From positions 1 to 28,542 of IMG/VR virus record IMGVR_UViG_3300020365_000095: a stretch of 28,542 nucleotides of DNA; one strand, written 5' to 3'. The position numbers and the translations under genes were made by a program. Below are positions 1 to 25,148 of the stretch, piece after piece. The notes beneath the pieces were generated by a model. The model did not search any database, had not been told where the DNA came from, and saw nothing but the letters and a program-made list of their open reading frames with translations. Position 1 is the stretch's first letter. Each line of letters begins with the position of its first letter. The DNA is from a virus. Lineage: Duplodnaviria; Caudoviricetes.

Positions 1-2570
1 TGACTAATTGTTGTATCTAGTTGTGCTTGATACTTAGATATGTCTGCAGCTAAGTTGTCATAAAATTTAGCAATGTCGTTTTCACTAGTTACGTTAAATT
101 GTTCCATAGTGTTTTTAGCTGCTTGATCAGATAACAAGCCTTGGAACTTAGTTTGATAACTTAGTATTGCAGCTTGTTGATCGTTTGACAAGTTTTGTAA
201 ATCCATTTGTAAGAAGTTTTGAGCATTAGCTACTTGTGCTTGTTGTCTGTTATTTAACCCTGCCATTTCCATTTGTGCAAATGTAGCAGCATTCTGTACA
301 GTTCTAGCTTGCTCAAAGTCTAAATTCTCAAGCTCTAGAGTTTCAATCATTTTGGAATTAGATAGAACTCTAGCTTGTTCTGCGTTAAAAGTCAAGTTAT
401 TAGCACTAAAGAATCGTTCTGATTTAACAACACTTGATTGTTGTGCATTTGTTAATTCTTGTCCTGCTAGAGCAGCTTGAGTTTGTAATTCAGATAATAC
501 GACTTGAGCTTTCGTGCTCATGTTAGACATATCTACTTGTAGATTGTTTGCTGTGTCTTGTAACCTGGCTTGCATCTCATTGCTAAGATTTAGGTTATTC
601 ATTTCAGCAAATCTGCCTGCTTCAATTATATTAGTTTGTTGTGTATTAGTTAAGTTTTGACCTTGTAGAGCTGCTCTTAACTGTGCATTAGCTACCTGAG
701 CAGCTTGTAAGTTAGATAAGCTTGTTGCTCCTAATTGAAAAGCACTTGTACTTTTAGCAAGTTCTGCTTGTTGTTCATTACTTAAATTCTGTAGTTGTGT
801 ACCTCTTTGAGCTGCAGCTACTTCTAAAGCTATTTTTTGCTGATTGTTAAGATTAGTAAGATTCATATTAGAATATACTTGAGCATCAGCTTGAGCAATG
901 GGTAGGGCTGATTCCATAGAGGCTTGCACTATGGCTGCTGCCGCTAAGGAACTAGCTCCCATCCCCCTAGCAGCCATTGTATCATTTGCTGCCCTAATAG
1001 CACCTGCTGCCCAAGTAGGAGTGCCATCATTAAACTGATCCATTAATAAACTTAATTGTCCTTGTACTGTATCTCTAGCTTGTACATTACCTTCAATAAA
1101 TTGTGCAACTACAGTGTCATCTACGTTTAAACTTTTTGCTAAGAAAGTTGCATCACCACTTAATACATATTTTTCTGCAGCTGTTACTTCTCTTTTTAAA
1201 CCATCAGCAGTTGCAGCTGTAGGTATTTCGTTATCTCCTACAACACCAACAGATCTTTGATCATTTATATTAGATACAAAAGTAGATTGTGGTGTATCAC
1301 CTACATATGTTTTTGCGTCAAAGTCAGTTGTTGCAGCTACTGGATTTTCAGTATCAGTAACTGTTCTACTAGGCATTTCATCAGGTGTTATTATTTGCTC
1401 ACCTGGTGTTCCTGTAACAGATCTTACTTTAGCATCTTCTGTTGGGGTTGCTTCTTGACCTACTACTTTAGTACTAACAGTACCATCAGCTCCTACTGCA
1501 GTTCCAGGTGATCCAACTAAAGTTGCAGTACCTTGTTTTGCACCAGGTGATGTAGGTGCTACTGCTGTTCCTGCTTTAGCTTTATCAGCTACTACATCTG
1601 CAAGTTTGTTTAAGTCAAAACCATTCTTTTCTAGTAATTCTTTTGCAGTATCTATTTGTTGTGGAGTATAATCATAAACAGCTTGTGCAGGCATTGTAGG
1701 ATCAGCTACTTGGCCTGCTGTAAAATCTACTATACCTTGTTCTCCACCTTCTGTAGTAGCAGGATCTTCAGACTTTTCTTCACCTGGTTGCAATACTTCT
1801 TGACCTATTTGAATACCATACTGATTAAAGTATGTTACTGTTGTAGTGCCATCTGAATTTTTTACCTCTGTTGTTCTAGCAGGATCTCTTTGTGAAAATA
1901 AAGGGTTTGGTCTAGTGCCTCTACTTACCTCTTCTCCTCTAGAATTATAATATATAACTTCTATAGTTCTAAAGTCAGCAGATAAAGCACCATCTGTAGT
2001 TTTGGTAGGATCTATTTTTGTAGGATCATACTCTTCTTCTGGTTCTGGTGCATTTTCATTTGCTATATTATCTAACTCTTCTTGAGATACCGTTGTACCA
2101 CTTTCATTAGCAGTTTGAACTGCACTTCTAATAGCTTCTGTTTGTTCTCCAGTTAAGTCACCACCTGTAGATTCGACAGTATTAAATATAGCATCGTTTT
2201 CTAAAGTAGTAAGATACTCGTCTGTAGATACACTACCGTCTGGATTAACAAAACCTGCTTCTCTTGCGGCAGTTTCTGCAGCACTTGGGGGAGGATCACC
2301 TGCACCTCCAGGTAAAGTATCATTACCTGCACCTCCAGGTAAAGTATCATTACCTGCACCAGCATTTAAAGTATCATTACCTGCACCACCTGTCATAGTG
2401 CTTGTTAATTTATTTATTTCATCAAAATTTATATTACTTCCAAGAAAATTTAAATTTCCAGTAAATTGACCTGTTGTAGGATCATATTGGTAAGAACCTC
2501 CAGTATTAAATCTACGTAAGGCCTCTGCTCTCATTTGTTTTTCTTTATCTGTCAATGGTACTTTAGGCAT
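1..2570 (-). CDS. Large internal virion / DNA-ejection protein (partial, >856 aa, runs off left edge; absent from ORF track)
   Basis: Hand translation from ATG at 2570 (MPKVPLTDKEKQMRAEALRRFNTGG...) found no stop down to base 3. Acidic T/E/P-rich N-half, Gly/Ala segment (WAAGAIRAANDTMAARGMGASSLAAAAIVQA) and Q/N-rich 22-aa repeats. Location after the tail fibre genes fits podovirus ejection proteins; function is inferred. Confidence 0.8.
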   Translation of the reverse strand, partial: MPKVPLTDKEKQMRAEALRRFNTGGSYQYDPTTGQFTGNLNFLGSNINFDEINKLTSTMTGGAGNDTLNAGAGNDTLPGGAGNDTLPGGAGDPPPSAAETAAREAGFVNPDGSVSTDEYLTTLENDAIFNTVESTGGDLTGEQTEAIRSAVQTANESGTTVSQEELDNIANENAPEPEEEYDPTKIDPTKTTDGALSADFRTIEVIYYNSRGEEVSRGTRPNPLFSQRDPARTTEVKNSDGTTTVTYFNQYGIQIGQEVLQPGEEKSEDPATTEGGEQGIVDFTAGQVADPTMPAQAVYDYTPQQIDTAKELLEKNGFDLNKLADVVADKAKAGTAVAPTSPGAKQGTATLVGSPGTAVGADGTVSTKVVGQEATPTEDAKVRSVTGTPGEQIITPDEMPSRTVTDTENPVAATTDFDAKTYVGDTPQSTFVSNINDQRSVGVVGDNEIPTAATADGLKREVTAAEKYVLSGDATFLAKSLNVDDTVVAQFIEGNVQARDTVQGQLSLLMDQFNDGTPTWAAGAIRAANDTMAARGMGASSLAAAAIVQASMESALPIAQADAQVYSNMNLTNLNNQQKIALEVAAAQRGTQLQNLSNEQQAELAKSTSAFQLGATSLSNLQAAQVANAQLRAALQGQNLTNTQQTNIIEAGRFAEMNNLNLSNEMQARLQDTANNLQVDMSNMSTKAQVVLSELQTQAALAGQELTNAQQSSVVKSERFFSANNLTFNAEQARVLSNSKMIETLELENLDFEQARTVQNAATFAQMEMAGLNNRQQAQVANAQNFLQMDLQNLSNDQQAAILSYQTKFQGLLSDQAAKNTMEQFNVTSENDIAKFYDNLAADISKYQAQLDTTIS
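129..854 (-). repeat. Eleven contiguous 22-aa Gln/Asn-rich coiled-coil repeats (protein level)
   Basis: Units begin NLNNQQ, NLSNEQ, SLSNLQ, NLTNTQ, NLSNEM, NMSTKA, ELTNAQ, TFNAEQ, NLDFEQ, GLNNRQ, NLSNDQ, each exactly 66 nt apart. Confidence 0.85.
2295..2394 (-). repeat. 27-bp tandem repeat (~3.5 copies) encoding RTX-type nonapeptides
   Basis: aaagtatcattacctgcacc at 2314, 2341 and 2368; translates GGAGNDTLN-AGAGNDTLP-GGAGNDTLP-GGAGD. Confidence 0.9.
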
Positions 2571-2580
2571 ATTTCTCTCT

Positions 2581-2748
2581 CTAGCTCATTATAATCTTTA
2601 TTAGCAAACCTATTACAGAAACACTTGCTCCTATAAGTATTGCTTCTATTCTATACAGTCGTTTGTCTATAGCTTCATATCTACTCGTACATGCATCTAC
2701 ATGATCGTCTATCTTTTGATTTACTATGCTTGCAGTAGGTTTAGACAT
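2581..2748 (-). CDS. Small membrane protein, XhlA/haemolysin-like (possible lysis or holin-type); absent from ORF track
   Basis: MSKPTASIVNQKIDDHVDACTSRYEAIDKRLYRIEAILIGASVSVIGLLIKIIMS (55 aa): short coiled coil plus C-terminal TM helix. ATG overlaps the upstream stop (TAATG). Confidence 0.75.
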   Translation of the reverse strand: MSKPTASIVNQKIDDHVDACTSRYEAIDKRLYRIEAILIGASVSVIGLLIKIIMS

Positions 2749-3182
2749 TATGGAGCTTCTACCTCCGTTACTTCGCCTGTTGCACTTATTATTGTTTTGC
2801 TTCCATCTTGGTAAGTAACTGTTCTTCCAAAATTATTAGATGGTGGTGGGTAAGCTTCTCCTTCTTTATAATCTAGTGGGTCAAAGGTATCTTCCAATAC
2901 TTCAGAAACAACATATTTTGGATACAGAGTAAAGCCATCGTCAGGTGTATAGCAATATTTATAACTTTCAAAATCTTCTGGTAAATCGTGTGATGCATCT
3001 ATATATATATTTGCATTTTCTAAAGTTAAATCAGAATAGTAAAAGAAAAAAATATCGGATTCTTTTGATTTTAAACCAATTTTTTTTTGACCATTTTCAT
3101 TAGTATGTTCTTCTATACTCACGTTATCGTCAGCGTTGCAAACAACTTGGTTATTTCTTTTTAATGTTATTAAATTTGGCAT
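2748..3182 (-). CDS. Hypothetical acidic protein, tail-fibre associated
   Basis: ORF track 2748..3224; start moved to ATG 3182 (MPNLITLKR), which has an AAGGAG RBS at 3189-3194. Confidence 0.7.
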   Translation of the reverse strand: MPNLITLKRNNQVVCNADDNVSIEEHTNENGQKKIGLKSKESDIFFFYYSDLTLENANIYIDASHDLPEDFESYKYCYTPDDGFTLYPKYVVSEVLEDTFDPLDYKEGEAYPPPSNNFGRTVTYQDGSKTIISATGEVTEVEAP

Positions 3183-3192
3183 AATTATCTCC

Positions 3193-3477
3193 TTATAAAA
3201 AATCTGGTTTAGTTGGAAAAGCAATATTTGGAAAATCCTCTTGTGCAGGTAAATCTCTTAATGCTTGTCTATATGTTGTAGCTTCTGTTTTTTGTTCATC
3301 TGTTAATGGGCTGTCAGAAACTAAAGCCCAATCACTTTCTTGTAGCAATATGTTTCTTTCTATTTTTGCTTGTTGTAATCTATCTTCTTCTACTAAAGAC
3401 TCATTAACTAAATCATCATTAACTTCTAATGTTACATATTGTTTTGTTGTTGCATTGTATACTTGTGTTTGTGCCAT
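3193..3477 (-). CDS. Tail fibre assembly chaperone (Phage_tail_APC-like)
   Basis: RNILLQESDW...DSPL...YRQALRDLP...FPTKP signature; directly downstream of the fibre gene; GGAG RBS. Confidence 0.88.
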   Translation of the reverse strand: MAQTQVYNATTKQYVTLEVNDDLVNESLVEEDRLQQAKIERNILLQESDWALVSDSPLTDEQKTEATTYRQALRDLPAQEDFPNIAFPTKPDFL

Positions 3478-3486
3478 AACTTACTC

Positions 3487-6400
3487 CTAACCTATAATTG
3501 CGTAAACAGAAACTACGCCTTCCATAATTGCTGTACTTTGCTCTGCTTGACTGTCATCACCTATATAAAAATAAAATCCATCTGCATAATTACTAGTAGA
3601 GCTTCCATTACCTAATGAAACTATACCACGAGCAAAAGCATGATTTGTAGCTGATGAACCCCACCTCCAAGTAGAGCTATAATCGTATGAGCCATTTCTT
3701 AAAGAGTTAGTATATATTGCTCTACCATTTAACTGACCACCATGACCTGATGTATTGTCATAATTTTGTTTAGGATTATCTACATCATTACCACTATATG
3801 CGTCACGAGCAGTACCATCACCTCTTTGTAAGGGAAAACCTGCTGATACTGCTTTAGATGTTTGTACTCTATCACTACTGTCGTAGGCACTAAATATACT
3901 CATATAGACAGTATTACCAGAAAGAACACTAGATGAACCATTGTAAGGCTTAAAAGTAAAATGGTTTCCATCTGATGCAAAACCAATGCCATAATAATTA
4001 ATTTCATACGCTCTAACATTTGATGCTGTATAACTTGATGGTAAACTAATTAAAACATTTTGTGCTGTGCTAGAACCATCTACTCTAAAATCATAAGAGC
4101 CACAGAATATTCTAGCATCTCCGCTAATGGTAGTATCGCTTCTTGTAGGTAATCTTAATCTAGTTGTACCAACAGCTTCACCAACAAATGGGTTATTAGG
4201 ATCAGCATTAATATCACTATCAGGTGTTGTAACAGTTACTAATGCTCCTGTTGATGAAACATAATATTTTGTACCGTCTGTTAAAGAGCTTTGATTTTTT
4301 TCTAAGCTGTTACTAGTAAATGGTAAAACTTGAATAGTATCGCCTGCTGTACCTGCTTCTTGAGCAAAACCAAATGCTAATGCTTTATTTGTAGTATGAG
4401 TTGTTAAGGTATGAGGAATGTTACCTGATGCGTAATATGTATCTCCTCCATCAGTACCAAAACTTGTTGTGTTTTTCCAAACATTACTATCGGTTGAGTT
4501 TACCTGTAACCATTTACCTGCATTAGCATTAGTAAAACTAGAAATAGACATGGTATCAACAATAGCTAACATATTACCAACTTGTATAGCCTGACTTTGT
4601 CCTCCACCACTTACATTTGTAGTTTCTGTTATACCTGTACCACTTGGGCTATAAACTGACATATTTTGATTTAACCCTGGTTGAGCTAGTGAACCTCGTG
4701 GAACAATATAAATATCATTTAGATAATCATAATGTAATGTAGGATTACCTGAACTTATATATGTAGTATTTGAACCATAATTATCCTGTCGAACAGTTTG
4801 TACTGTTAATGAAGATGAACCCATTGCAATACAAAAGAAGTATTTTTTATATTGGTTTCCTGTTCCTGGATTATAATAATGACTTATAGTGTATAAAACC
4901 CTTCCTTTTCCATCAGCTTTTTGTTGGTCTAAACGATAGTTGGCATGGCTTTGAACATTACCATTATGGTCTGAAAGTAGTTGTTCAGTATATTGAGGTG
5001 TCCATGTATATGAACTAGAGCTTCCTGTGTTAGTCCAACAAGTATATCTATGACGAATATTTGTATCAACCCATGCAACTCCTAGCCTATCATTAGTATA
5101 ATCATACATTGTTCTTATAGGGTATTGTTGAGTTTGCATTGAGCCTTGACCATTAATACTTGTGAATTTCTGATTACTTAATGTTGTTGCTTGATATGGA
5201 TTACTTAGACCTGAATCACCATCATATGTTAATCTTCTTGTTGATATTACAAAATGAGATTGATAAGGGTGACTATAGTACATATACCATTGACTACAAG
5301 CAACAACAACCATTTCGTCTGTACCCATAGATATAACAGAACTATCGTTAGACATGTGATCATCATTACTATAATCAGGGTGTCTAAGTAGTTCTAGTCT
5401 TGAATACATTTTAACAATATTGTCACTACTAATAGTAAATGGGTGAGCATATCTTTGAATATTACCTGCACTAGCATGATAATCATAAAATACCATATAA
5501 GTACCACCTTCGGCAGAGTTCATATTTTTATGCCATCTAAGTTCCATTATTTGAGCACTGCCACCTAAATTGTCAGTCGTTATATAAAAATAATCGTAGG
5601 TTTGATTTACAGTAACTTTACCATTTGATTGGCTAGGATTACTACCATGATAATTATGTCCTGCAGACCTATCATACCATGTAGATGACGCAGAGTCATA
5701 TTCGTATATTTGAAATCTTACCCCATAAGATGATGAAGCACCTGAATGAACTATTACATATTTACCACTATCGTTTGCTACAGCACAATTTTGCCAAACT
5801 CTTTTATTAGCACCATAACTACCGCCCAAATCATTACCTGCTGTTGTTAAAGCAGTAGAAGTTGTCGCTGCACCAAAACTAAGATTTTGTGTTGTTGTTG
5901 TTTTTTTAACTTTAGCTGTTTCACCATTACTTTCTTCTGTAACAACATGACCTGCAGATATTGCATCTGATCCTGACGCAATAACCATATCTTGATTTTC
6001 AAAGTTAGGTAAATTTGTTAATTCTAAAGCATCTACAGCAGGTAATTTACTATTTGCATCTAGTCTTACTAATTGGTTTGCATTAGTTCCTGAAGCAGGC
6101 TCTAATTGAATTGATGTAGAACTAAGAGCTTCTCCTAAAAATACTGTTCCTGAAGTAGCTACAGTACCTGAATCAGTAGCAAAATATTTAGTTCCTGCAG
6201 TAAGAGAAGATTGATTTTCATTAACTCCACTATCTATAGTAACATTTACACTTTGTCCGTTAGAAGCAGACGCTGCTGCTAAACCTAAGAAATTAGTACC
6301 AGTTAAGTTTGATACTTGATCTACTGGTGCATGATAAATGGTTAAATATGGCGTACTATCTGCTCCCCATGTAGCTACAATAGGATTGTTATCCATTCCT

Positions 6401-13659: not shown

Positions 13660-14733
13660 TTACGCTGCGTTATATTTAGCTGTCACAATGCCTTCAGGTC
13701 TTAGGATTTTTCTTCCGTACATCTGCATTCCTCTGACTATGTCAGCGAATGATTCAGGATCACGGTAAGATTCAACTTTATTGATCTGAGAAGCAGTTGC
13801 TACTGCTGAACTATGTCCTGCAACAATAACACCATAGTTAGAATTTTGGTTAGCATCACCAGAGGTTGCTGAACCAGTTCCAACTGAAGGTAAGTTACTA
13901 GAAACATATACTTCGAAACCATGCAGATTACCGACTGAAATACCATTTACAAGTCCACCTTTATCTGCGGTGTCATTGTTTAATAGTCTAGAATCTTCAT
14001 CTGATAATAGTTCCATAAATACAGGATCGACTACTAGCCAACGACCTGCTGTATCAACTTGTTGTTGATTCAATAATCTAGCCATTCTAGCTACTACTTG
14101 AAGCGGTGTTGCAGTAGCTGTCGCTGCTGCTGTTGCTCCAGGCATTCTTACTGCTAGAGGGATAGAATGATCGCCTGCTGAAGAAGTTGTAATGTTACCA
14201 AAATCACCTTTTTTCAAGATCATTGAGGATAATAATTCATTACTTCCTGCTGTGCTTACAGCTTTAGTGCCTGATACTGTGTCATTAGCAGTATCTGCAA
14301 CTGAACTTAAAGCTGATTGTTTAAAACCAGATAGGTAACCAAGAACTTCTTGATCGTATTGATCACGAAGTCTATAGCCTGCTCTATCTGATGCCATGCT
14401 TTCAAAATTAATATGAGAGTGAGCTTCCTCAATATCATCCATTTTAAAAGCAAAGTAGTTTGCCTGATCAACAACTAGTGTAAAATCCTCATCGTCTAAG
14501 TCTTGCGGTGTGACTGTAGTACCACGAGAATAAGCTTTCACTGTTATTTCTGGCTCTTTAATAATACGAACTGTATCACCAAAGTTTGCAATTTCTCCAA
14601 AGTAGTCATTGTTAGTAATAGATTCAGCAACGGAACTCTTACGAAAAGCTTGTTGAACCTTTTGACTGTAAATAACTGGAGAGAAATTACCATTAGGTAG
14701 GTTAGTATAACCTGACGCTACTTTAAAAGCCAT
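13660..14733 (-). CDS. Major capsid protein (HK97 fold, HMO-2011/cobavirus type)
   Basis: MAFKVASGYTNLPNGNFSPVIYSQKV, GDTVRII and C-terminal ADIVRGMQMYGRKILRPE. Start set at 14733 (AAGGAG at 14741-14746) rather than 14766. Confidence 0.92.
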   Translation of the reverse strand: MAFKVASGYTNLPNGNFSPVIYSQKVQQAFRKSSVAESITNNDYFGEIANFGDTVRIIKEPEITVKAYSRGTTVTPQDLDDEDFTLVVDQANYFAFKMDDIEEAHSHINFESMASDRAGYRLRDQYDQEVLGYLSGFKQSALSSVADTANDTVSGTKAVSTAGSNELLSSMILKKGDFGNITTSSAGDHSIPLAVRMPGATAAATATATPLQVVARMARLLNQQQVDTAGRWLVVDPVFMELLSDEDSRLLNNDTADKGGLVNGISVGNLHGFEVYVSSNLPSVGTGSATSGDANQNSNYGVIVAGHSSAVATASQINKVESYRDPESFADIVRGMQMYGRKILRPEGIVTAKYNAA

Positions 14734-14763
14734 CTGTTTTCTCCTTTTTATATTAGAGGCCAA

Positions 14764-14857
14764 CAAACGATAACCTCACTTCGTAAGGGCTGATGCTGAA
14801 AATGGGTGTCTATGCCTAGAGGCCATAACATCAGGTAGCCTGAGTGAATTTCGTTTG
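14764..14857 (-). ncRNA. Candidate structured cis-element in the MCP 5' leader
   Basis: Nested sense-strand pairings CAAACGA/TCGTTTG, TCACT/AGTGA, GGC..TGATG/CATCA-GCC, capped by hairpin TCTA-GGCA-TAGA. Confidence 0.5.
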
Positions 14858-14924
14858 GTAAGTGTAGGGTGGGATAGATGTCAAATACATTTGACACTTT
14901 CGGCCTACTACGATTGTAGTATAT

Positions 14925-14958
14925 GTTACATACATATACAAAAAATAGGTTTTGTCAA
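14925..14958 (-). promoter_or_regulatory. Putative late promoter TTGACAAAAC-N11-ATATGTATGT, overlapping a weak terminator hairpin after the scaffold gene
   Basis: Same motif with the same spacing at 26680-26709; AATAGGTT-GACAA-AACCTATT-TTTT hairpin overlaps it. Confidence 0.5.
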
Positions 14959-14965
14959 CCTATTA

Positions 14966-15838
14966 TTACTGTCTAGCTGCTCCACTAACATCATATTCAA
15001 AGTTTCCAGAACGTATTGCATTAGCAATAGCTTCTTCATTTGCTGAATATTCTTGTGATGTCATTCTTGCAACATCAGACTCTTTTATGATATCTGAAGA
15101 ACTAGCAGTGTCTGAAGGGGTAGAACCACCTTTTGTTTTTACTGCTTTGGCAGCATCTGTAGACTTTGCTTTTTTCTTACCTGTAATACCCATATCTGCT
15201 TTATATAAATCAATAGCACGAGCCGCAGCCTTAGCATCGGTTTCGTTATCATATAAAGCTTTTTGGATATATTGAGGTTGTTCTTCAGCCCAATCATGAA
15301 ATTTAACATCATTTCTAATGTCTTCAAAATCAGGATGTAATCTCATTAATTCTGCTTCTGCTATTTGTTTTGCTGATTTTTGTTCTTTTTTAGCAATAGA
15401 TTCTAAGCGTTCTTCAATAGATGCATTCATTTCTTTTGATTTTTTAATAGCAATAGTTTCTATTATTCTTGCTACATCCGGATATTCAGCAGACCATGCT
15501 TCTAGTTCTTCATCTGTTTTAGGAAGCTTTATTTGTTTCTTAGTAGCTTCTGCTAACTGTTTTTTAACTTTTTCAAGCTCTGCATCTTTTTCATCTGCAA
15601 CTTTTTGAGCATGTCTTCTTAAATCACCATATCTTTTCTTAAATGATGCTTCTTCAGCATTAGCAGGTTCTTCTGTAACTTCTTCAGTTGTTTCTTCTTT
15701 AGAACCTTCTCTTGCTTTTAATTCTTCTTCAGCAGCCAACTCTTGCATAGTTGGTTCTGCTCTTTTATACCTTACAGGCTTTTTCATAATTGTATCGCCT
15801 GTGGCTTCATCTTTTTTTACTTCTACTTCTTCTGACAT
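14966..15838 (-). CDS. Capsid scaffolding protein
   Basis: 290 aa, E/K/A-rich helical; FKKRYGDLRRH, HPDF..I....F..W motifs; immediately upstream of MCP; AAGGAG RBS. Confidence 0.82.
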   Translation of the reverse strand: MSEEVEVKKDEATGDTIMKKPVRYKRAEPTMQELAAEEELKAREGSKEETTEEVTEEPANAEEASFKKRYGDLRRHAQKVADEKDAELEKVKKQLAEATKKQIKLPKTDEELEAWSAEYPDVARIIETIAIKKSKEMNASIEERLESIAKKEQKSAKQIAEAELMRLHPDFEDIRNDVKFHDWAEEQPQYIQKALYDNETDAKAAARAIDLYKADMGITGKKKAKSTDAAKAVKTKGGSTPSDTASSSDIIKESDVARMTSQEYSANEEAIANAIRSGNFEYDVSGAARQ

Positions 15839-15851
15839 TTATTTCTCCTTT

Positions 15852-15897: not shown

Positions 15898-15907
15898 TAA
15901 ACAGTGC

Positions 15908-18814
15908 TTACATAGCTAATGAATTAAAATTAAAACTATTCTGTTGTTGCACTGGTGCTATCTTGTCATAGATAGGCATTAATGCTGCAAGTTCATTTCC
16001 TGTAACTTCAGCAAATTCTTTCTTTTGAAATCCATCTAAAAGATTTCTTTCATAGTCTGTTAGTACTGCTTGACTGCCTGCTCCTGCCATACCTGGTCTA
16101 TAAGTAGACAAAACAGATATTTTTTTACGATACTCACCCATTTTATCAAATGTTGCATAACCTTCTCCTCCTGCAGCTTTATCTGCTAATGCAAACATAG
16201 TAACAACATTTATATCGTCATTAATTTTGTTCATCATTTTTTCTGCTGCATCGTCTCCTCGTAAACCTTTACCTACTTGTCCTTGACCATAAAGTAATTT
16301 ATAATCTAAATCTTTTTCGTGATATTTATACATACCTAGTTCATCATAACCATCTACGTAACCATATCGTAAGCCAAACTCATTACCTACATCTATAAAT
16401 AACTCTCCGCCTATATTTATTTCTAGAGACTCTTCTAAGGCTGCTACGTAACCTCCTGCAGTATTTATTAAAGCCTCTGCTCCATCTCTATTTTCTTGAG
16501 AAAATTTAGATCCTGTAAAACCACCTACTATAATATCATCAGGACTATATACGTCTTTATCAAAATCAATCGCTGCTTCTCCTACGTAAGTACTAGGAGG
16601 ACCTTTAAATAAACTTATTACACCTGCAGCTAGTGCTACGTAACCTAGTACTGAAACCGCACTACCTAAAGCTGTACCTGTAGTTGCTGCTTTAGCTCCT
16701 GCACCAAGTAGTCCACCTTGTGCTAATACACCTGTTGAGTACCCTAGTCCTGCAACATTACCAACACTAGGTCCATTTTCTATAATATCATATAGTGATA
16801 ATCCTGCACCTACTGCAGCTAAACCTGTTTTCCAATTCCATACACCATTACTTGACATAGGAGCTTCACCTGTAAGATCTGCTCCTGTTTTAGTAGATGC
16901 ACTACCAGAAGTGTTTACATTAGTTAAATTACCATCATAAACACCTGTCTCTCCTCCAGAAACTATATACGCTTCTCCTGGTGTTAGTCTAACAATTTTT
17001 CCGTCTACCATTGTTGTATATTGAGAGCCACTAAAAAGTCCTGCTTCAGGAGCACCAGTAGTAAGTGCAACTTTTGAACCTATAGGAACTATAGTGTTGC
17101 CTACTGTAATACTTGTACCTGTCATAGCAGCTGTAGCTCCACTTGTTAAAATACCTGCATTAGCAGCAGCAGCTTTATCAAATCCTAAAAATTTTCCTAC
17201 AGGATCAAATATATTGTTTCTAGCCCAATTAAAAACTGATTCTGTTATTGCACCATCAAGAAATAATTTATCTAATGCTGCAACTGTTGCAACGCCTGAT
17301 AATAGTTGTTCTGTGGTACTTGGTTTTGGTGGAGTGCTACCTGATCTATCTACGCCAAAGCCTGGCATATTTTCTAAATCAACACCTGTATAATTACCAC
17401 CTACAATGCCTGTAGTTCTTGGACCTGTAGCTGTTATCTTTGTATCAGGATCAGTTACTCTATAGTTTCTACCTTCTGGTGTTGTAAGTGTTGCTTTATT
17501 ACCACTATCGTCAGGAGTTATTGTTTGTCCTTCTCTAGGGGTTATTCTAGGACCAACTGGTTTAAGATCTTTAAATCTAGGATCATTAGGATCAACAGGT
17601 TTACCTATTACTTTTTCATCATCATCAGAAACTACTGCAGGAGAACCACCTTCATTATATCTAGCTACAGTAGCACCTTTACTAGCCATTACTTCATCTG
17701 TTTGTTCTTTTACATCTTTAACTATAGGTGTACCATCTTCATCAACAGGTCTTATCTGTCCGTTGTCTTCTAGTTCATCTAAGGCTTTTAATGCTGTTTT
17801 ACGCATGTTTTCATATTTAGATAAACCATGGTAACGAACTACATTAGCAGGAACTACTAGTTCACCTTCAGATATCATAGCAGGTATATCATCAGCTACT
17901 TCGCTTTCTGTAGCACCTGGTGTATCATCAGCATTATCTGCTAGGCCACCTTCCATAAATTTTTGTATATCTATAGAACCACCTTTAGCCATAGCATTTA
18001 ATTCTTTTTCATATAAACCTAATTGCTGTCTTTCTTCTTCAGTAAAAAATCTATTATATACTTTACTACCTTTTTCACCTGAGTATCTATCTAATGTTCC
18101 TAAATACTTTCTATATTCTTCTGCATCAAAATCATTCATGACTTCTAATGTTTTTTCTCCTAATAAACCATCTACTTCAATTTTTTTATTTTTAGATACT
18201 AAATATTTTTGTAAGTCTTTAATAGCTCCTGCATTTTGTCCTGTGTAACCTGCATCCATAAATAATAATTTAGCAGCTTCAGGATTTACGTTTTCTAGTT
18301 GGCTTAAATCTCTAAATTTACTAGGCTTATCATCTGAAACATTTTGACCTGTATATTGTCTATACATAATTTCTGCTACTTTTTCGTCTGTTAATGTGCC
18401 TTGTCTTATTTCTTCAGCAAGCTCTGGATAAGAATCTATATGTATTCCTTTAAATGCTTGATTAGTTTCTTGACCATCTTTATCACCTGTTCTGCCTTCA
18501 GCAAACAACCATTGCTTCATCATTTCAGTTTTAAAGTAATCACTAGGTGTAAATTCTTCTTCGGTTACAGGCATTGCACCTTCGTTTAACATCATAGGTT
18601 TTTCATATTTTTTTAATAATTTTTCAGGTTCTAGTAGCATAGCTGTTTGAATATTAGTATTACTTGGCTGTGGTTTTTTTGCAACACCACTAACTTTTTT
18701 CTTAATATCTTTATCTTTAGCTTTTTCTTCAGATGTTTTTGGATCTAATATAGACGGATCTTTTAAACCGTCAGCTTTTGCTTCACCTGGTTTTTTATTT
18801 AGTAATGTTTCCAT
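15908..18814 (-). CDS. Multi-domain internal virion protein: GH108-like muramidase/PG-binding module, DDIPAMISEGE domain, Gly/Ala hydrophobic region
   Basis: aa ~95-257 follow the GH108 + PG_binding_3 pattern (AEG..., LTDEKVAEIMYRQY, LLFMDAGYTG, KDLQKYL, VDGLLGEKTL); aa 299-345 DDIPAMISEGELVVPANVVRYHG; long GA-rich hydrophobic stretches in the C-half. Confidence 0.65.
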   Translation of the reverse strand: METLLNKKPGEAKADGLKDPSILDPKTSEEKAKDKDIKKKVSGVAKKPQPSNTNIQTAMLLEPEKLLKKYEKPMMLNEGAMPVTEEEFTPSDYFKTEMMKQWLFAEGRTGDKDGQETNQAFKGIHIDSYPELAEEIRQGTLTDEKVAEIMYRQYTGQNVSDDKPSKFRDLSQLENVNPEAAKLLFMDAGYTGQNAGAIKDLQKYLVSKNKKIEVDGLLGEKTLEVMNDFDAEEYRKYLGTLDRYSGEKGSKVYNRFFTEEERQQLGLYEKELNAMAKGGSIDIQKFMEGGLADNADDTPGATESEVADDIPAMISEGELVVPANVVRYHGLSKYENMRKTALKALDELEDNGQIRPVDEDGTPIVKDVKEQTDEVMASKGATVARYNEGGSPAVVSDDDEKVIGKPVDPNDPRFKDLKPVGPRITPREGQTITPDDSGNKATLTTPEGRNYRVTDPDTKITATGPRTTGIVGGNYTGVDLENMPGFGVDRSGSTPPKPSTTEQLLSGVATVAALDKLFLDGAITESVFNWARNNIFDPVGKFLGFDKAAAANAGILTSGATAAMTGTSITVGNTIVPIGSKVALTTGAPEAGLFSGSQYTTMVDGKIVRLTPGEAYIVSGGETGVYDGNLTNVNTSGSASTKTGADLTGEAPMSSNGVWNWKTGLAAVGAGLSLYDIIENGPSVGNVAGLGYSTGVLAQGGLLGAGAKAATTGTALGSAVSVLGYVALAAGVISLFKGPPSTYVGEAAIDFDKDVYSPDDIIVGGFTGSKFSQENRDGAEALINTAGGYVAALEESLEINIGGELFIDVGNEFGLRYGYVDGYDELGMYKYHEKDLDYKLLYGQGQVGKGLRGDDAAEKMMNKINDDINVVTMFALADKAAGGEGYATFDKMGEYRKKISVLSTYRPGMAGAGSQAVLTDYERNLLDGFQKKEFAEVTGNELAALMPIYDKIAPVQQQNSFNFNSLAM

Positions 18815-19037
18815 TTTTCCCCTCTTTAGCTTTTTGTATTACTTCATCCCTAAACGTAGCAAATCTTTGTAACTCATGTATGCTACCTTGTATTTGTATT
18901 ATCTTGTTATGGTCTGTTTCTCTTATAAGATTTTTTACATGAGATTTAATTCTTTCTTCTGCGTAATCAAATAAAGCATCTATAGATTGTTTATTATTAG
19001 CTACTACTAATAATTTTCTAGCTACTTCTGGGCTCAC
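18795..19037 (-). CDS. Small helical protein after portal (head-associated, hypothetical)
   Basis: 80 aa with IIQIQGSIHEL motif; ATG overlaps the portal stop; usual slot in this gene order. Confidence 0.65.
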   Translation of the reverse strand: MSPEVARKLLVVANNKQSIDALFDYAEERIKSHVKNLIRETDHNKIIQIQGSIHELQRFATFRDEVIQKAKEGKNGNITK

Positions 19038-21109
19038 TGTATTTCTCCTTCACTAGGTGGCCTTCCTGAAAAGCCTGGCATTCCTGGTTCAGGTGCTCCG
19101 CCAGGACCTATCTGACTATTGCCTGTACCTGCAGGACTAGTTGGTGGAACTGTTCCTCCTCCTTCTGGTGGAGGTGGTGCTCCTGCCCCTGGTGGTTGTT
19201 GTGGTGGTCCTTGCATCATTCCAGATGCTTGCATAACTTTAGCTTGTCTTAAAGCTTCTCTTTCATCATTTACAAACTTCTCAGCATCAAGATCAAATGA
19301 GTGTGCTATCTCTCTTAATATTACTGGGAACTTTACAAAAGGTGCTAGTGCAGGATTAGAACCGATTTGCATAAGTTGTAATAGTCTTTGACTTCTTACT
19401 TCGTTACGCATAAGGCTTTCTGTACCTCTAGCTTTTATTTCTATATCGCCTTGTACATCAGGATCAAAATCAAATTGCTGATTAAAGGCATAGAAAGATT
19501 CACCTAGTGGTTGTAATAGGTAGTCATCTATATTTTTAACCACTGTCTTAATAGATATCTGAGCTGCACCCATTAGCATAGATATCCCTGCCGCTGTTCT
19601 ACCGGTTCCTTGTATTCCAGTCTGACCATGTGAGAAAGACGGAATGCCTGTAGATTCATCGGACAAGGCTCTTGCTTTATCAAACATCATCAAATTCTGA
19701 GAAGATACATTAGGATACTGTGTAGCAAATAGTGCTTGACCAGGTGCTCCACCTTGTCTCCTAAATATCTTACCAGGGTATACTTCTAGGTCTTGACCTG
19801 GTACGAGATTTGTTTCATCAATCTCAAATATCAGGTTACCCGATAGAACAGCATTATCAACAGCCATTCGCATAAAGCCGTTCATTAGCTGTTGTGTGTC
19901 TACCATGTTTTCTGCTAGTCCTACTCCAAAGAAAGAGTAAGGGTTTAACTCATAAGGAGCAGCAAAATAAGGAATACGGATAGGCATAAAAGGGTTAAAC
20001 GCCAACCGTAAAATTTTGTCGTTACAAACCCAAGCGTTGATTTGAACCAAATCCACATCTGCGTATTCTTTAGGTATGTCCAAGCCTGCGTCTTCTGCAT
20101 ATGTTCTATCAATGTTGCCCCAAAACTCAAGGACTTCGTAGCGATCAACGCTAACATTTGTCGAATCGTAGTCATCTAAATCATCCTCCCACCATTGTCT
20201 GGTGTAATTAGTGCCCATTTCGATACATTCGTCTAGGGCATCTTCATCAAACAGAGGGCGATTCTTTAGTGCCCTCATATCAGCATGGTTTAATTTATGT
20301 CGCTGAATCACATATTCTACCTCATCCATATTATTAGCTGCAGGATCAGGATAAAAATCCCAACAAGAAACAAACTCTAATCTAGGAACTGTTTTGATTT
20401 CAGGTGTATATGTAACATTACCTTCTTCATCTTGTTCCCATCTAGGGTATTCTTTGTCTTGAGCAAATGGTCCTTTTAGTATTCCTGTACCAAATAAGGA
20501 CATTTCAAATGCTGCTGATCTTAAATGTTTAGAAGCTGAAGATTCTTCTAATTGATCAAGTATCTTTTTTTCCATAGCACGAGCTGCTTCTTCTGCAGGA
20601 TGATATGTAATAGATGTAGGAGTAACACCTGCACCTTCTTTTAATTCTAAATCATCTGCTAATTCTTTTAATGCTCCTAACTCTAACTCTTCTTCTTTAG
20701 AACCTGGTGGAAATAAACTACCTTGGTTAGGATCATCTTGTGGTTGAGTTGGATTCTTAGGATCAAAGTGTACAGATTCTTCTACACCATCTGGTAATCT
20801 TGTTGCATCAACTCCTAATGGAAATTTTTGTCCTGCAAATAATACATCAATAATCTGACCATAAGCAGCAGTTACTTTTGTTTTTGTAACTTTTAAAAAT
20901 ACTTGACTTTTTTCTGTTTCTGTAAATTGTGTTTCTGAACCATAGATACCTCTATAGTTTCTGTAAGACTCCATCCATCTTGATTCTTGTGAGTAACGAG
21001 AGTCGTATGAGTAATTAAATTTATCTCTAATATAAGAAGATAATGTCATTTTTTGACTATCTTCTAATTCCATTTCTAGTTCTGTTTCTGTAGTGTTTTC
21101 TTCAGCCAT
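19034..21109 (-). CDS. Portal protein
   Basis: 691 aa after TerL; LFGTGILK, WDFYPDP, YSFFGVG, TAAGISMLM motifs; Pro/Gly-rich C-tail. Confidence 0.9.
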   Translation of the reverse strand: MAEENTTETELEMELEDSQKMTLSSYIRDKFNYSYDSRYSQESRWMESYRNYRGIYGSETQFTETEKSQVFLKVTKTKVTAAYGQIIDVLFAGQKFPLGVDATRLPDGVEESVHFDPKNPTQPQDDPNQGSLFPPGSKEEELELGALKELADDLELKEGAGVTPTSITYHPAEEAARAMEKKILDQLEESSASKHLRSAAFEMSLFGTGILKGPFAQDKEYPRWEQDEEGNVTYTPEIKTVPRLEFVSCWDFYPDPAANNMDEVEYVIQRHKLNHADMRALKNRPLFDEDALDECIEMGTNYTRQWWEDDLDDYDSTNVSVDRYEVLEFWGNIDRTYAEDAGLDIPKEYADVDLVQINAWVCNDKILRLAFNPFMPIRIPYFAAPYELNPYSFFGVGLAENMVDTQQLMNGFMRMAVDNAVLSGNLIFEIDETNLVPGQDLEVYPGKIFRRQGGAPGQALFATQYPNVSSQNLMMFDKARALSDESTGIPSFSHGQTGIQGTGRTAAGISMLMGAAQISIKTVVKNIDDYLLQPLGESFYAFNQQFDFDPDVQGDIEIKARGTESLMRNEVRSQRLLQLMQIGSNPALAPFVKFPVILREIAHSFDLDAEKFVNDEREALRQAKVMQASGMMQGPPQQPPGAGAPPPPEGGGTVPPTSPAGTGNSQIGPGGAPEPGMPGFSGRPPSEGEIQ

Positions 21110-21111
21110 AT

Positions 21112-22695
21112 TTAATATCCAAATACCTGATCAGCAGGTTTCCAAGGTTTTTTCCAATCGGTGTTGGAAAAGTCATACAACCCTCTAGGAGTTGGTCTGG
21201 ACATGATACCATAACGTAGTGCATCATATCCATGGTCGTAGTCTATTTTAGTATTCACATCTTCAGGATTATTTTTATCTAAAGGTATTTGTGGTAATTC
21301 TGATATAAGTTTAACACAATTTGAAAAAAATTCAACCCCTGCTTCTCCTGTTTCTTCATCTACTCTTAATAATCTATGTAGCTCATTTTTACCTGCTACT
21401 CTACTTCCTTTACTTCTATCGGACTGTCTCCATCGACATCCTCTTAATATCATTGTTTCTGCAATCGAAGGACCTGTCTGTCCTCTGTTGTGCCAACAAG
21501 ATGAGTCAAGAACACCGTACCAAATCTTATCATCGTTCTCTCTTTCAATGCTTAGTATCAAGTCTGCTAACTCCTCTGCTGTTTTTTTCTGTGCATAAAG
21601 TTCTCTATATACAATTAATTTATTATCTGGTCTTACTGCTACCCATAAACATACTGACCAACTTGAATACCCATAGTCACATGTTCTAAATCTTTTCCAT
21701 GAAGCAGGTACATTATAAGGTTCTACTACATGTATATCTCTATTAAACTCTGTAAACGCTGCACCTTCCGCTATATCCCAAGAACCTTCTAATAATTGTT
21801 GTCTTTGTACTTCAGGTAAAGATAACAAGTTTGCTTCATACTCTCCTGCCTCAGCGAGGTAAGGATTGTCTGTAAGTTTAGCAGGTATAAACCTTCTTTT
21901 AAATAGTGGCTTTCCTGCTTTATCATGGCCACTAGGATAAGTTAGCACTTCTCCGTTTTCTATATCTGTTGCCCAAAACGATGAGTTGTAAGGGGCAGGA
22001 TCAATAAACATTTTCTTAACCCATAAATGTCCTGGTCCACCTGGGTTTGTAGTTCCTCTCATATACGTTGGCAAATCAGCATTCACAGTACGTAAACGAG
22101 AACGTAAATAGTTCCAAGCATATGGTGTACCATACTGAGTAAGCTCATCTACACCTATCCAAGTAAAAGCTTGTCCTTGGTATCTTAGAACGTCTTTATC
22201 TTGCTCAAGATATGTCATCCATATTCTAGCACCAGAGGGGAATGTCCATAAAGACTTTCTTTCACTCCACTTAGCACCAGGAAATACTCTTGGATATAAT
22301 TCCTGACTTTTCTGTACTAGCTCTCTTAACTCATCATTTGTTCTTCTAAGTAGAAGAGCACTATGGTTAGGATGGTTGCAATATCGCAACACATCTGCTA
22401 GTAAAGCGTAGGATTTACCTCCACCTGCCGCACCACCATATAAAACTTCTTTTTCATTCGATGCTAAGAAGTCTGTCTGTGGGCCACTGTTAGGTTGAAA
22501 TACAATATCTCTTTCTTCTTCGATAACTTGTAAATCATCATCAGTCTCGACTATATTAGCTCTAACTGGTGGCTTCCTTTTGGCTCGAATAATTTTCTGC
22601 TTCTTTGATGAGGTCTTCTTGCGTCTCTGTCCTTGCCTTGGCTTTAACTCGCTCCCATCTAATAGTTGCTGCTTTTTTATTTCGTTCACTTTCAT
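21112..22695 (-). CDS. terL: Terminase large subunit
   Basis: Q motif PNSGPQ, Walker A YGGAAGGGKS, Walker B IGVDE, motif III TTNPGG, nuclease DYG and DHGYDALRY. Start uncertain because it overlaps the upstream ORF by 134 nt. Confidence 0.95.
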   Translation of the reverse strand: MKVNEIKKQQLLDGSELKPRQGQRRKKTSSKKQKIIRAKRKPPVRANIVETDDDLQVIEEERDIVFQPNSGPQTDFLASNEKEVLYGGAAGGGKSYALLADVLRYCNHPNHSALLLRRTNDELRELVQKSQELYPRVFPGAKWSERKSLWTFPSGARIWMTYLEQDKDVLRYQGQAFTWIGVDELTQYGTPYAWNYLRSRLRTVNADLPTYMRGTTNPGGPGHLWVKKMFIDPAPYNSSFWATDIENGEVLTYPSGHDKAGKPLFKRRFIPAKLTDNPYLAEAGEYEANLLSLPEVQRQQLLEGSWDIAEGAAFTEFNRDIHVVEPYNVPASWKRFRTCDYGYSSWSVCLWVAVRPDNKLIVYRELYAQKKTAEELADLILSIERENDDKIWYGVLDSSCWHNRGQTGPSIAETMILRGCRWRQSDRSKGSRVAGKNELHRLLRVDEETGEAGVEFFSNCVKLISELPQIPLDKNNPEDVNTKIDYDHGYDALRYGIMSRPTPRGLYDFSNTDWKKPWKPADQVFGY

Positions 22696-22921
22696 CCTTC
22701 TTTAGCATTTTAAATAGAGCAACATGTGATATAGATCTACCACTTTTTGCTGATAACCATTTAGCTACTTCACGTAGACTAGATGTTTTAGCATGTTGTT
22801 TCGCTATATCTAATAGTTCTTGTTGTTCTGGTATGCTTCTTAATAAGTCTTTTGAGTTTTCTACAAGTTCCCAACCAAAAGGAACAGTAGAACCTAGTTT
22901 TCTTTTATATTCAATTTCCAT
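22562..22921 (-). CDS. Recombinase-domain-like (winged helix) DNA-binding protein between TerS and TerL
   Basis: VPFGWE...SLREVAKWLS...ISHVALFKML matches the serine-recombinase 'Recombinase' DNA-binding pattern; no catalytic domain. Confidence 0.6.
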   Translation of the reverse strand: MEIEYKRKLGSTVPFGWELVENSKDLLRSIPEQQELLDIAKQHAKTSSLREVAKWLSAKSGRSISHVALFKMLKKDESERNKKAATIRWERVKAKARTETQEDLIKEAENYSSQKEATS

Positions 22922-23291
22922 CTATTTCTTCTTCTTCATTTTTAGAAGGCAGTATAAACAAACCAGATGGAGTGTTTACTTCTATCTTCTCTTGCTTTAC
23001 TACGCCTGCTCTATCCAATACATCTTTTGCTGCAGTAAGTTTATCTCTATTACCTAACTCAGTAGGATCATCAATGATACCTGTTATTGCAACGGCTGCT
23101 TTAGGTGCATGCATAGATAAATATTCTTTTGAAGCTTGTAATATTTCTTCGTTAAGATTAGCTGTAACATCTCTCCAGGTAGTGTTAGGACTATAGCCTG
23201 CTATGTCCATTGCTAATCTGTGATTACCCATTGCTTCACCAAATAAAGCATCTATAAATTTTTTCTGTTTTTCTGTTAGTTCTTTTGACAT
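22911..23291 (-). CDS. terS: Terminase small subunit
   Basis: LTEKQKKFI...GN...AMDIAGYS HTH and AAKDVLDRAG; upstream of TerL. Confidence 0.8.
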   Translation of the reverse strand: MSKELTEKQKKFIDALFGEAMGNHRLAMDIAGYSPNTTWRDVTANLNEEILQASKEYLSMHAPKAAVAITGIIDDPTELGNRDKLTAAKDVLDRAGVVKQEKIEVNTPSGLFILPSKNEEEEIDGN

Positions 23292-23633
23292 TTAGAATCC
23301 TGTTGAATACTCTTCTACGAAAGCAGTAACTGTTATATCGTCAGCAGTACCTGCTGTTGCTGATAAAAGATCTCCTGTATCAAAGTAAATAGGAGAATCA
23401 GATATAACTAAAAAATCATTTGCAGCTATACTTTTAGCTCCTGTAAGTGCAAAGTGAGTAGTAGCTGATGCATCATAAAACTCTAACTTAACTGTAGCAG
23501 CAGAAGATGCATCTACATTTGCTATCATTATTGACGTAATAACAGCACGAGATAAACTAGGAGTTGTATAAATAGTTGTCCTATTCGTAGTAGATAATGC
23601 TACTGACTGTGATTTAAATGTAGGTATAGCCAT
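23292..23633 (-). CDS. Small beta-sandwich protein, probably virion structural
   Basis: 113 aa, A/T/S-rich, TIYTTP...SIMIANVD...GDLLSA pattern; abuts both neighbouring genes. Confidence 0.6.
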   Translation of the reverse strand: MAIPTFKSQSVALSTTNRTTIYTTPSLSRAVITSIMIANVDASSAATVKLEFYDASATTHFALTGAKSIAANDFLVISDSPIYFDTGDLLSATAGTADDITVTAFVEEYSTGF

Positions 23634-23807
23634 TTATTTTTTAATACCAAATAAACATTTCTTACCAGTAGGAGAATCTACTTTAAGAGGTTTACCACCT
23701 TTACGATACCCAACATGCATTAACTTACTTGTTTCGGTAGCATATGCTTTAGCTTTTCTTTTACCTTCATCTGTATAAGAAAAATTTTTATCTCCAACCA
23801 TTGGCAT
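23634..23807 (-). CDS. Small basic protein (57 aa); absent from ORF track
   Basis: MPMVGDKKFSYTDEGKRKAKAYATETSKLMHVGYRKGGKPLKVDSPTGKKCLFGIKK; AAGGAG RBS; stop abuts the next ATG. Confidence 0.8.
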   Translation of the reverse strand: MPMVGDKNFSYTDEGKRKAKAYATETSKLMHVGYRKGGKPLKVDSPTGKKCLFGIKK

Positions 23808-23819
23808 GGTGTTTCTCCT

Positions 23820-23957
23820 TTACTCAGTTTTTTCTTTAGTTTTAATAGTAATATCTAAGTCTTTACCTTTTGGTGCAGACGCTGTTAAAGATATTTGTGA
23901 CGCAGCACAACCTATTAAACTTAAACTTAATACAAATACAATTATTAAATTTTTCAT
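23820..23957 (-). CDS. Small lipoprotein (45 aa); absent from ORF track
   Basis: MKNLIIVFVLSLSLIG|CAASQISLTASAPKGKDLDITIKTKEKTE: basic N-terminus, hydrophobic core, LIGC lipobox; ATGA overlap with the upstream gene; AGGAG RBS. Confidence 0.8.
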   Translation of the reverse strand: MKNLIIVFVLSLSLIGCAASQISLTASAPKGKDLDITIKTKEKTE

Positions 23958-24217
23958 TTCTTTCTCCTTACAATTTTCTTTCCTGCTTTTTTATTACGAG
24001 GAAAGGATCTATTCTTACTTCTTGATACTACCCTAAGATTACTTTTCTTGTTGTTCTTAGGATTACCATCTTTGTGATCTATATCTTTCTTATCACCTTT
24101 AGTTACCTTACCTTTACGTAAAGCAGCTCTTCTTACCTTGTTTCTAGATGCTCTTCTTTTTTTTTGCTCATCTCTACTATGGTAATTTTTGTATTCCCTT
24201 TTATAGTTTCTAGCCAT
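23954..24217 (-). CDS. Small basic HNH endonuclease
   Basis: DIDHKDGNPKNNKKSNLRVVSRSKNRS (H-N-N). Confidence 0.8.
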   Translation of the reverse strand: MARNYKREYKNYHSRDEQKKRRASRNKVRRAALRKGKVTKGDKKDIDHKDGNPKNNKKSNLRVVSRSKNRSFPRNKKAGKKIVRRKK

Positions 24218-24218
24218 A

Positions 24219-24881
24219 CTAGTCCTTATATAAATTATTAAAAGTTATATGTGGATCAGTATAACTTTCATGTTCTTCACTACTATGAGTCCATTGACTA
24301 GGAGCAAAATCAGGAGCTCCTTCTCCAGTAACCCATAATGCAGGATTAGTAACTCTTACTCTATTGTTAGGTAACGCTACTATATTCCCTTTCCATTGAC
24401 CTTCAGTCAAGTATAGTACATGACTTTGTTTATGTTGGTCCGGACTATCAGCTATCTCATCTTCTGTATAATCTACAGTAAAGATATACTTAGCTAAATA
24501 AAATTCACCATCTATCTTGGCGTACCAGGGAGATGATGATGTTCTATCCATTACGACAACTGAGTGTTGTCTTGACATACAATCCCAAGGTTGACATAAA
24601 TGATTTTCCATTCTGTCAGGCCATTCATCTAGTGGTATGTCAGCAACTAGACCTTGTATTGGCATTCGAGCCCACATAGCACCGCCATGTACATTAGGCT
24701 CATCATCTTCAGCTTCACAACCAGTAAATACAATCTGAAAAGATAGTGATCTATCTGGTATACAATTTACTGCTATTACTAATCCATGTAGAAATTCACC
24801 ATGATAATCCTGGTGATTAGCTGTAAACTCTTTTCTTACCCATACTTTAAAGTAGGGTACATTAGATATAAGATGTGGCAT
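24219..24881 (-). CDS. Conserved hypothetical phage protein (220 aa)
   Basis: W/H/C-rich globular sequence (HGGAMWARMP, QPWDC, QHKQSHV, LPNNRVR); no function recognised. Confidence 0.7.
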   Translation of the reverse strand: MPHLISNVPYFKVWVRKEFTANHQDYHGEFLHGLVIAVNCIPDRSLSFQIVFTGCEAEDDEPNVHGGAMWARMPIQGLVADIPLDEWPDRMENHLCQPWDCMSRQHSVVVMDRTSSSPWYAKIDGEFYLAKYIFTVDYTEDEIADSPDQHKQSHVLYLTEGQWKGNIVALPNNRVRVTNPALWVTGEGAPDFAPSQWTHSSEEHESYTDPHITFNNLYKD

Positions 24882-24884
24882 AGT

Positions 24885-25148
24885 CTATCTCTTAGACCTT
24901 GCCCCACCCCTTTTCATTCCTTTTGCTCTTCTAGCTACTCCGCCTTTGCTATATCCCTTAGCTTTTTTAGTAGCGACTCCACCTTTTTTGTAGCCTTTAG
25001 CTTTCTTCATGGCTGATCCGCCTTTTTTATAACCTTTGGCTTTTTTCATAGCTGTTCCACCTTTCTTCATGTAGCCCATTTTGTTTCTAACAGTTTTAGG
25101 TAATTTACTAAGACCTTTACCTTTATTTCCTGCAGGTACTCTCTTCAT
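24885..25148 (-). CDS. Lys-rich protein of tandem 13-aa repeats ending in xxKGG
   Basis: GYMKKGG-TAMKKAKGYKKGG-SAMKKAKGYKKGG-VATKKAKGYSKGG-VARRAKGMKRGG. Confidence 0.8.
   Translation of the reverse strand: MKRVPAGNKGKGLSKLPKTVRNKMGYMKKGGTAMKKAKGYKKGGSAMKKAKGYKKGGVATKKAKGYSKGGVARRAKGMKRGGARSKR

Follow-up and report, generated by a model that had tools for sequence, protein, structure and literature searches.

A conserved di-glycine motif in putative internal proteins of a marine HMO-2011-type podovirus: a possible docking tag for packaged cargo

The stretch of DNA analysed here, called the window throughout, is a single 28.5-kb contig (28,542 nucleotides; IMG/VR record IMGVR_UViG_3300020365_000095) that holds the structural half of a marine short-tailed phage which, judged by capsid identity, portal and gene order, is a podovirus of the HMO-2011 type. 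These phages form an abundant marine group, and the way in which podoviruses select the proteins inside their heads is not well understood. We describe a five-residue motif, [FYM]xxGG, in which phenylalanine, tyrosine or methionine stands at position -3 of two glycines. In this phage group it is conserved in three kinds of protein, where it marks module joints and tails: a large modular protein encoded between portal and scaffold, the first protein of the likely ejection cluster, and small basic proteins. The sequences suggest that the motif could be a short docking or loading tag for packaged cargo, a reading to which we give a probability of about 0.5 and which appears more likely than a cleavage site. 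Furthermore, the module that the motif brackets in the large protein is, according to profile comparison, homologous to the C-terminal module of tape-measure proteins. There are precedents for loading signals, for polyvalent cargo and for the processing of tape-measure proteins; new here are the tape-measure homology of the module, the co-occurrence of module and motif, and a predicted cleavage site in phage lambda.

Results

Conservation of the motif

The tagged proteins and the motif copies are as follows (aa, amino acids).

3..2570, minus strand: left-edge gene, first of the likely ejection-protein cluster and orthologue of HMO-2011 gp25
2496-2510, minus strand: FNTGG, in the left-edge protein after a 20-aa leader
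15908..18814, minus strand: 968-aa modular protein, gene between portal and likely scaffold
17750..17899, minus strand: conserved module of the 968-aa protein, with DDIPAMISEGE at 17861-17893 and two predicted helices
17978-17992, minus strand: MAKGG, 968-aa protein, upstream flank of the module
17945-17959, minus strand: FMEGG, 968-aa protein, conserved leading edge of the module
17645-17659, minus strand: YNEGG, 968-aa protein, downstream flank of the module
18575-18589, minus strand: LNEGA variant, a doubtful member, where similarity to the closest relative starts
17672-17686, minus strand: ASKGA variant, a doubtful member
23634..23807, minus strand: 57-aa basic protein, with YRKGG at 23694-23708
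24885..25148, minus strand: 87-aa basic protein, with five motif copies at 25056-25070, 25017-25031, 24978-24992, 24939-24953 and 24903-24917

In a set of 165 loci, part of which had been picked with a profile that includes the module flanks, the motif was present in 135/139 members of the 968-aa cluster (449 matches against 98.5 after shuffling), in 8/8 members of the left-edge cluster and in 44/184 small basic open reading frames (ORFs); the p-values of these shuffles overstate the case, because homologues are not independent. Among 1342 distinct GG contexts of the 968-aa cluster, 362 had F, Y or M at position -3 (27%, against a background of 9% and 6-15% at other offsets); the share was 20/45 in the left-edge cluster (44%) and 103/175 in the small basic ORFs (59%), whereas replication proteins stayed at background (10/80, 12%; background 11%). 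The consensus reads (G/K)-[FMY]-[ANQKS]-x-G-G-[LVMIA]-[VA], and seven of seven cultured relatives that were fetched have the motif. Close relatives of the left-edge protein keep F-N-x-G-G with T, I, Y or N at x and diverge right after it; among ten further ones with an intact start, seven had the motif (one of them the window match), two had a leucine anchor and one had none. For the GG copies, conservation across the sequenced relatives is clearly real and not due to chance.

Synonymous codons of the motif vary across relatives, and Shine-Dalgarno-like sequences precede its methionine in 7/146 cases, compared with 770/1384 ORF starts. Because the codons vary and the methionines have no ribosome-binding sites, we consider the motif a protein-level signal, and internal translation starts or a DNA repeat were ruled out as its origin; only five ORFs begin with it, four of them with a doubtful start. 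The motif had seemed depleted in portal, capsid and terminase, but this reading was discarded, as most offsets, and not just -3, are equally low in the portal. Nor was an enrichment in the adaptor, which comes down to a single site conserved in some of the homologues, counted as the same tag. In the open literature, with subscription papers and figure content lying outside reach, no description of the motif was found.

Within the window the pattern has 13 matches. All copies listed in a preliminary description, made from the sequence alone, were recovered at their positions, and three more lie in the tail fibre (two) and the nozzle (one), which is the chance level. When each protein was shuffled 2000 times, the 87-aa protein alone went beyond chance (5 copies against 0.41, p printed as 0.000); the 968-aa protein (3 against 1.23, p=0.12), the left-edge protein (1 against 0.30, p=0.26) and the 57-aa protein (p=0.105) are not significant, so that the comparison with shuffled controls proposed in that description favours the motif in the relatives and, within the window, in the 87-aa protein alone. 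The description had placed all copies in linker-like sequence, which does not apply to FMEGG, part of the conserved leading edge of the module, and had included the GA variants, which we would not retain: [FYML][ANQ][EK]GA occurs in 2/150 representatives versus 133/150 for the GG form, and the LNEGA anchor is absent from the closest relative.

The left-edge protein has 856 aa as cut by the window edge and 998 aa in a matching contig (L225). Its residues 60-92 (2295-2393, minus strand), in the variable region after the motif, carry RTX-type Gly-rich nonapeptide repeats (PF00353, E 2.3e-8). The small basic proteins have up to 8 motif copies, and a look-alike of the 57-aa protein in another locus (L112) shows YAHGG at the matching place. 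Both small proteins of the window lie in a group of short ORFs, rich in Lys and Arg, that precedes the terminase (23634-26104, minus strand; DUF5872, DUF6321 and an HNH-like 87-aa ORF), only some of which have the motif; a relative of the HNH-like ORF in locus L153 has MEKGG.

The 968-aa family and its module

The module covers ~50 residues with the signature DDIPAxLSxGE and is bracketed by motif copies in the 968-aa family. Its profile matches 4789 proteins at 50% clustering; the motif was found in 150/150 of the top representatives, and at most 80 aa upstream of the module in 148/149. In 149 of these 150, its density per 1000 aa is 22 and 14 in the flanks and 12 in the last 50 residues, as against 1.0 and 0.7 elsewhere and none in the module core; the long N-terminal multi-domain regions of the family have only 1.0. 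Copies at the C-terminus occur in 53/132 orthologues of the 968-aa protein, often followed by just 4-8 basic residues, and many of these terminal copies lie 2-10 residues from the end.

The relatives range from about 200 to 1900 aa, with 33 to 1492 residues upstream of the module, and some have LPD23, metallopeptidase or NlpC/P60 domains (Pfam match in 10/29). Natural indels begin or finish at the motif, and after YNEGG two close relatives diverge or have insertions at once. In CRP-738 (L006:33700-37368) the gene in the slot of the 968-aa protein is split in two: module and motifs belong to the 383-aa product, and the 835-aa product has no copy of the motif. The variable N-terminal domain of the window protein (17990..18577, minus strand, between LNEGA and MAKGG), which may be muramidase-like, gave a weak peptidoglycan-binding match below the cut-off (PF09374, E 0.015). 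The AlphaFold model of the module has a mean predicted local distance difference test score (pLDDT) of 62.6 and a predicted template modelling score of 0.35; the module had no sequence match among solved structures and, with this low-confidence model, no informative fold match, which is no evidence of a new fold because the model is weak.

Homology with tape-measure proteins

The pelagiphage HTVC115P carries an intermediate form of the module, which matches 541 GenBank phage records (of the 60 matches listed, most are tape-measure proteins) as well as the tape-measure sequences of PDB 8zdo and JBD30 and, weakly, lambda (E 0.43). A profile of this form aligned with the window family at an hhalign probability of 96.8 (E 2e-10); its six rows include lambda, two pelagiphages and one protein that is not a tape measure, and B3 and Frankenweenie, two of the five fetched, were left out as they did not fit the extraction pattern. 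Compared directly with lambda, the module gave no significant result. The module pattern is matched by 25/30 members of the tape-measure family phrog_3547, and the hook pattern has [FYM]xxGG ahead of (D)SI-x-A-x-LS-x-GE-hydrophobic, with two predicted helices after it.

In the tape-measure proteins of lambda, JBD30, PDB 8zdo, Katyusha and R6L a motif copy lies ahead of the module, and in lambda gpH both FATGG (733-737) and YATGG lie around it. In JBD30 gp46, residues 1022-1066 are described as a predicted hairpin-plus-two-helix 'hook' that anchors the protein (PMC11445458). Lambda gpH is cleaved into products of ~78 and ~14 kDa, whose site and enzyme are called unknown in the text of a 2025 paper (PMC12617516). 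A cut at FATGG would give 79.5-79.9 and 12.2-12.7 kDa, near but not exact, and the tape-measure link offers a concrete candidate site for this cleavage. A tape-measure-type module is also found near the C-terminus of gp66 of the Caulobacter phage KcrB (L239:1498-3240), within an unannotated gene cluster; this protein ends two residues after the GG of the motif.

Gene map of the window

PHROG and Pfam assignments over 29 ORFs identify genes for terminase, SU10-type portal, capsid, adaptor, nozzle and fibre, all on the minus strand, and the order terminase, portal, small protein, modular protein, scaffold, capsid, adaptor, nozzle is common to the window and seven cultured relatives. HMO-2011 has an annotated DNA polymerase with a DnaJ-like insert; the comparison with the window covers the structural half.

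13660..14733, minus strand: major capsid protein, sharing 70-72% identity with its counterparts in HMO-2011 and in the Roseobacter phages CRP-1 and CRP-9
14966..15838, minus strand: likely scaffolding protein, by position and composition; an alternative candidate reader of the motif
19034..21109, minus strand: SU10-type portal protein, on which the module may sit
24219..24881, minus strand: 220-aa protein, phrog_3704

The portal ends in a Gly/Pro-rich tail (19034-19200, minus strand) with several residues invariant across 58 homologues. Before the capsid gene there is a conserved G+C-richer stretch (14734-14965), possibly a non-coding element, which in loci L011, L012 and L014 opens an in-frame extension; Rfam gave no match in the window.

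Candidate readers and proteases

In loci selected by their major capsid protein and with an intact portal-to-scaffold stretch, the module was present in a motif-bearing protein in 31/31 cases, and cultured phages with the module have tagged proteins in 9/9 (a CHOED stretch was left out, having no ejection genes). The phages phiM6 and RHph_N3_13, with portal and capsid ~54% identical and the scaffold kept, have lost the module and show 0 strict motif matches, and in MQM1 the module gene is absent and the ejection proteins have no motif. This joint loss suggests that the module or its partner could be the reader.

The preliminary description had seen no recognisable prohead protease in the head module, and in agreement with this none was recognised by PHROG or Pfam among the 29 ORFs; in particular, the terminase-to-capsid stretch gave no such match, and its 80-aa and 119-aa ORFs are short and without assignment. 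A cysteine protease of the adenain/pS273R clan was neither found in the 29 ORFs nor annotated in the seven relatives (~50 of 54-56 kb each). The 220-aa protein was rejected as a general reader or protease, because it is absent from the cultured relatives searched (no tblastn match in Roseobacter or Puniceispirillum phages among 110 records), while all seven fetched carry the motif. Its model is poor (pLDDT 44.6), with weak SH3/Tudor-like matches only (Z at most 4.1), and Atlas gave nothing. The protein is highly conserved, with 1155 relatives, and occurs in cyanophage myoviruses as 'ferredoxin' or 'PurM'; these labels look unsupported, and the weak model suggests SH3/Tudor-like barrels.

Discussion

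We propose that a short docking peptide would tether the tagged proteins inside the assembling head, and that the DDIPAxLSxGE module of the 968-aa protein is a likely candidate for its reader or anchor. Encoded between portal and scaffold, the 968-aa protein would seat at the portal vertex by analogy with the crAss001 cargo protein C1, with its flanking copies folded onto the module or a partner. The first ejection protein and the small Lys/Arg-rich peptides, which bear the same short sequence, could be recruited by it in trans, and repeated copies would give avidity. As such a tag would be short and portable, domains between copies could be gained or lost without losing packaging. In C1 (gp45; PF25725; PDB 7QOG) the stretch seen in ordered form on the portal wing spans residues 425-552; this bound segment starts A425-F-G-G and runs on, with AFGG and INEGG intact (PMC10172136). 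We favour docking because of this ordered pair of motifs, the terminal copies, the sparse tagging of multi-domain regions and the lack of a recognised protease. In fact, where the preliminary description had inferred either a cleavage site or a loading tag, a shared protein-level signal stands and the loading half is the better supported, whereas cleavage directly after GG is not supported.

Several observations weigh against this docking proposal. The tagged proteins are likely to be inside the virion head, to judge from gene position and architecture, and the literature yielded no proteomics of HMO-2011-type virions. The motif, which had been described as common to ejected cargo, is present on the first ejection protein, but the three proteins encoded downstream in that cluster of four mostly lack it, and it is therefore no universal cargo tag. 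The loss of the module represents only two independent events; the strict pattern is post hoc, being built from positives, and it scores no better than its reversed control in HTVC115P (3 vs 3) and HTVC103P (4 vs 6); and loose copies persist, one in RHph_N3_13 gp103 and two or three in phiM6. The flanking motifs are modelled with low confidence, and module, portal and scaffold are all candidate readers. Because the module sits in the tail in tape-measure proteins, a seat on the portal would not be its only role. Finally, hhalign gave no significant homology to C1 (E 0.19 and 0.38), though the anchors are colinear. As a separate observation, the largest ejection-cluster protein of HTVC115P (L220:13858-19539) has a motif copy seven residues before its C-terminus, which is not so in its counterparts from seven CRP/HMO phages.

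A possible, though doubtful, alternative is that the motif is a site for a host protease or an unrecognised phage enzyme, cut perhaps after the F/Y/M anchor and not after GG, by which cargo domains would be freed and the basic proteins chopped into 11-13-residue DNA-binding peptides. F, Y and M are residues that chymotrypsin-like enzymes accept at P1, and the copies lie at the joints of swappable modules. The lambda FATGG lies near the unmapped gpH cut and its predicted masses are near those reported (PMC12617516), but the estimate for that cut (residues 691-730) ends just short of 733. A cut before A425 would likewise fit the start of the ordered C1 segment at the second motif position (PMC10172136), while the residue before it is Asn, not F/Y/M, and cleavage directly after GG is excluded for the 12 ordered copies of C1, a protein of crAss001 without significant homology to that of the window. 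P22 gp7 is described as trimmed by host OpdA, exposing Lys-Gly-Gly (PMC8402733), and the distant podovirus phiRIO-1 as without processing (PMC4819975). Cleavage would also require a protease where PHROG and Pfam recognised none, with the 220-aa candidate missing from the cultured relatives searched and the module, in its model, looking too small for such an enzyme; it would free just 2-10 residues at terminal copies and leave the long N-terminal multi-domain regions, at 1.0 copy per 1000 aa, barely divided.

It is quite unlikely that the motif is only an intramolecular or homo-oligomeric structural element of the module (a strand with a Gly-Gly hinge) that recombination between copies has spread and that targets nothing in trans. 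This would suit its highest density at the module's own edges, its place before the module in the five tape-measure proteins named above, the predicted hook of JBD30 (PMC11445458) and the C1 deletions that run from motif to motif; it would leave unexplained the copies on proteins without a module, that is, the left-edge protein and the small basic ones with up to 8, and those at the extreme C-terminus, and the codons vary freely. Chance or Gly-rich composition is very improbable as a general explanation: three of the four window proteins are not significant alone and chance matches occur in fibre and nozzle, but the enrichment is found only at -3 and the motif in 135/139 and 150/150 relatives, which refutes chance for the GG copies, while LNEGA and ASKGA may still be due to it.

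A portable docking tag would explain the swapping of injected enzyme domains and of small basic peptides, and would help to call virion cargo from sequence alone. A wider idea, which we regard as unlikely, is that of one ancient peptide-and-hook device with which marine podoviruses and crassviruses would load cargo and siphoviruses would handle the C-termini of their tape-measure proteins, and which would be read by a common factor that cuts in some phages. If this were true, lambda gpH would be cleaved at FATGG 733-737, and a five-residue tag could be used for loading foreign proteins.

Among known systems, the T4 capsid targeting sequence is N-terminal and removed by gp21, and the adenovirus protease and pS273R of African swine fever virus act on di-glycine sites, hydrophobic-x-GG-like, in core proteins. 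By contrast, the copies described here are internal, flanking, C-terminal and repeated, with no protease found, and their anchor stands at -3 of GG, no cysteine protease of the adenovirus kind having been recognised. The likeness to T4 and P22, where loading by short signals and by way of the scaffold is well documented (PMC8402733), is that of a short signal proposed to load internal proteins. The relatives of the 968-aa protein resemble the polyvalent proteins (PMC5512222) in their variable enzymatic and LPD domains; this holds for relatives, the window protein itself giving only a sub-threshold match, and packaging is presumed. In the main text of that paper 'xGG' and 'diglycine' occur 0 times. 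With the C-terminal region of tape-measure PHROG families 3547, 5448 and 6090 the window protein has in common a homologous module with the same motif before it, and it differs in that the module lies in a podovirus head-module protein and that free motif copies occur on other proteins.

The closest likeness in layout that we can offer is crAss001 C1, which we treat as an analogue because the profile tests were not significant and the fold searches, made with a low-confidence model, were uninformative; PF25725 had no Pfam match in 114 members of the 968-aa family, and an Atlas score of 0.83 for the crAss C1 family is only a weak lead. A search for homologues of C1 gave near-identical proteins only, and the comparison covers C1 and nine homologues, ten crassvirus proteins with the same motif and layout (DAC17 was left out, as it did not fit the extraction pattern). 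The text on C1 in PMC10172136 does not mention the motif. Both proteins are modular virion cargo, at least putatively in our case, in which copies of x-A-x-G-G or FxxGG flank a conserved domain with a Gly-Glu anchor, the tail is basic and carries the motif, and natural deletions run from motif to motif; they differ in that the C1 gene follows the tail genes and not the portal.

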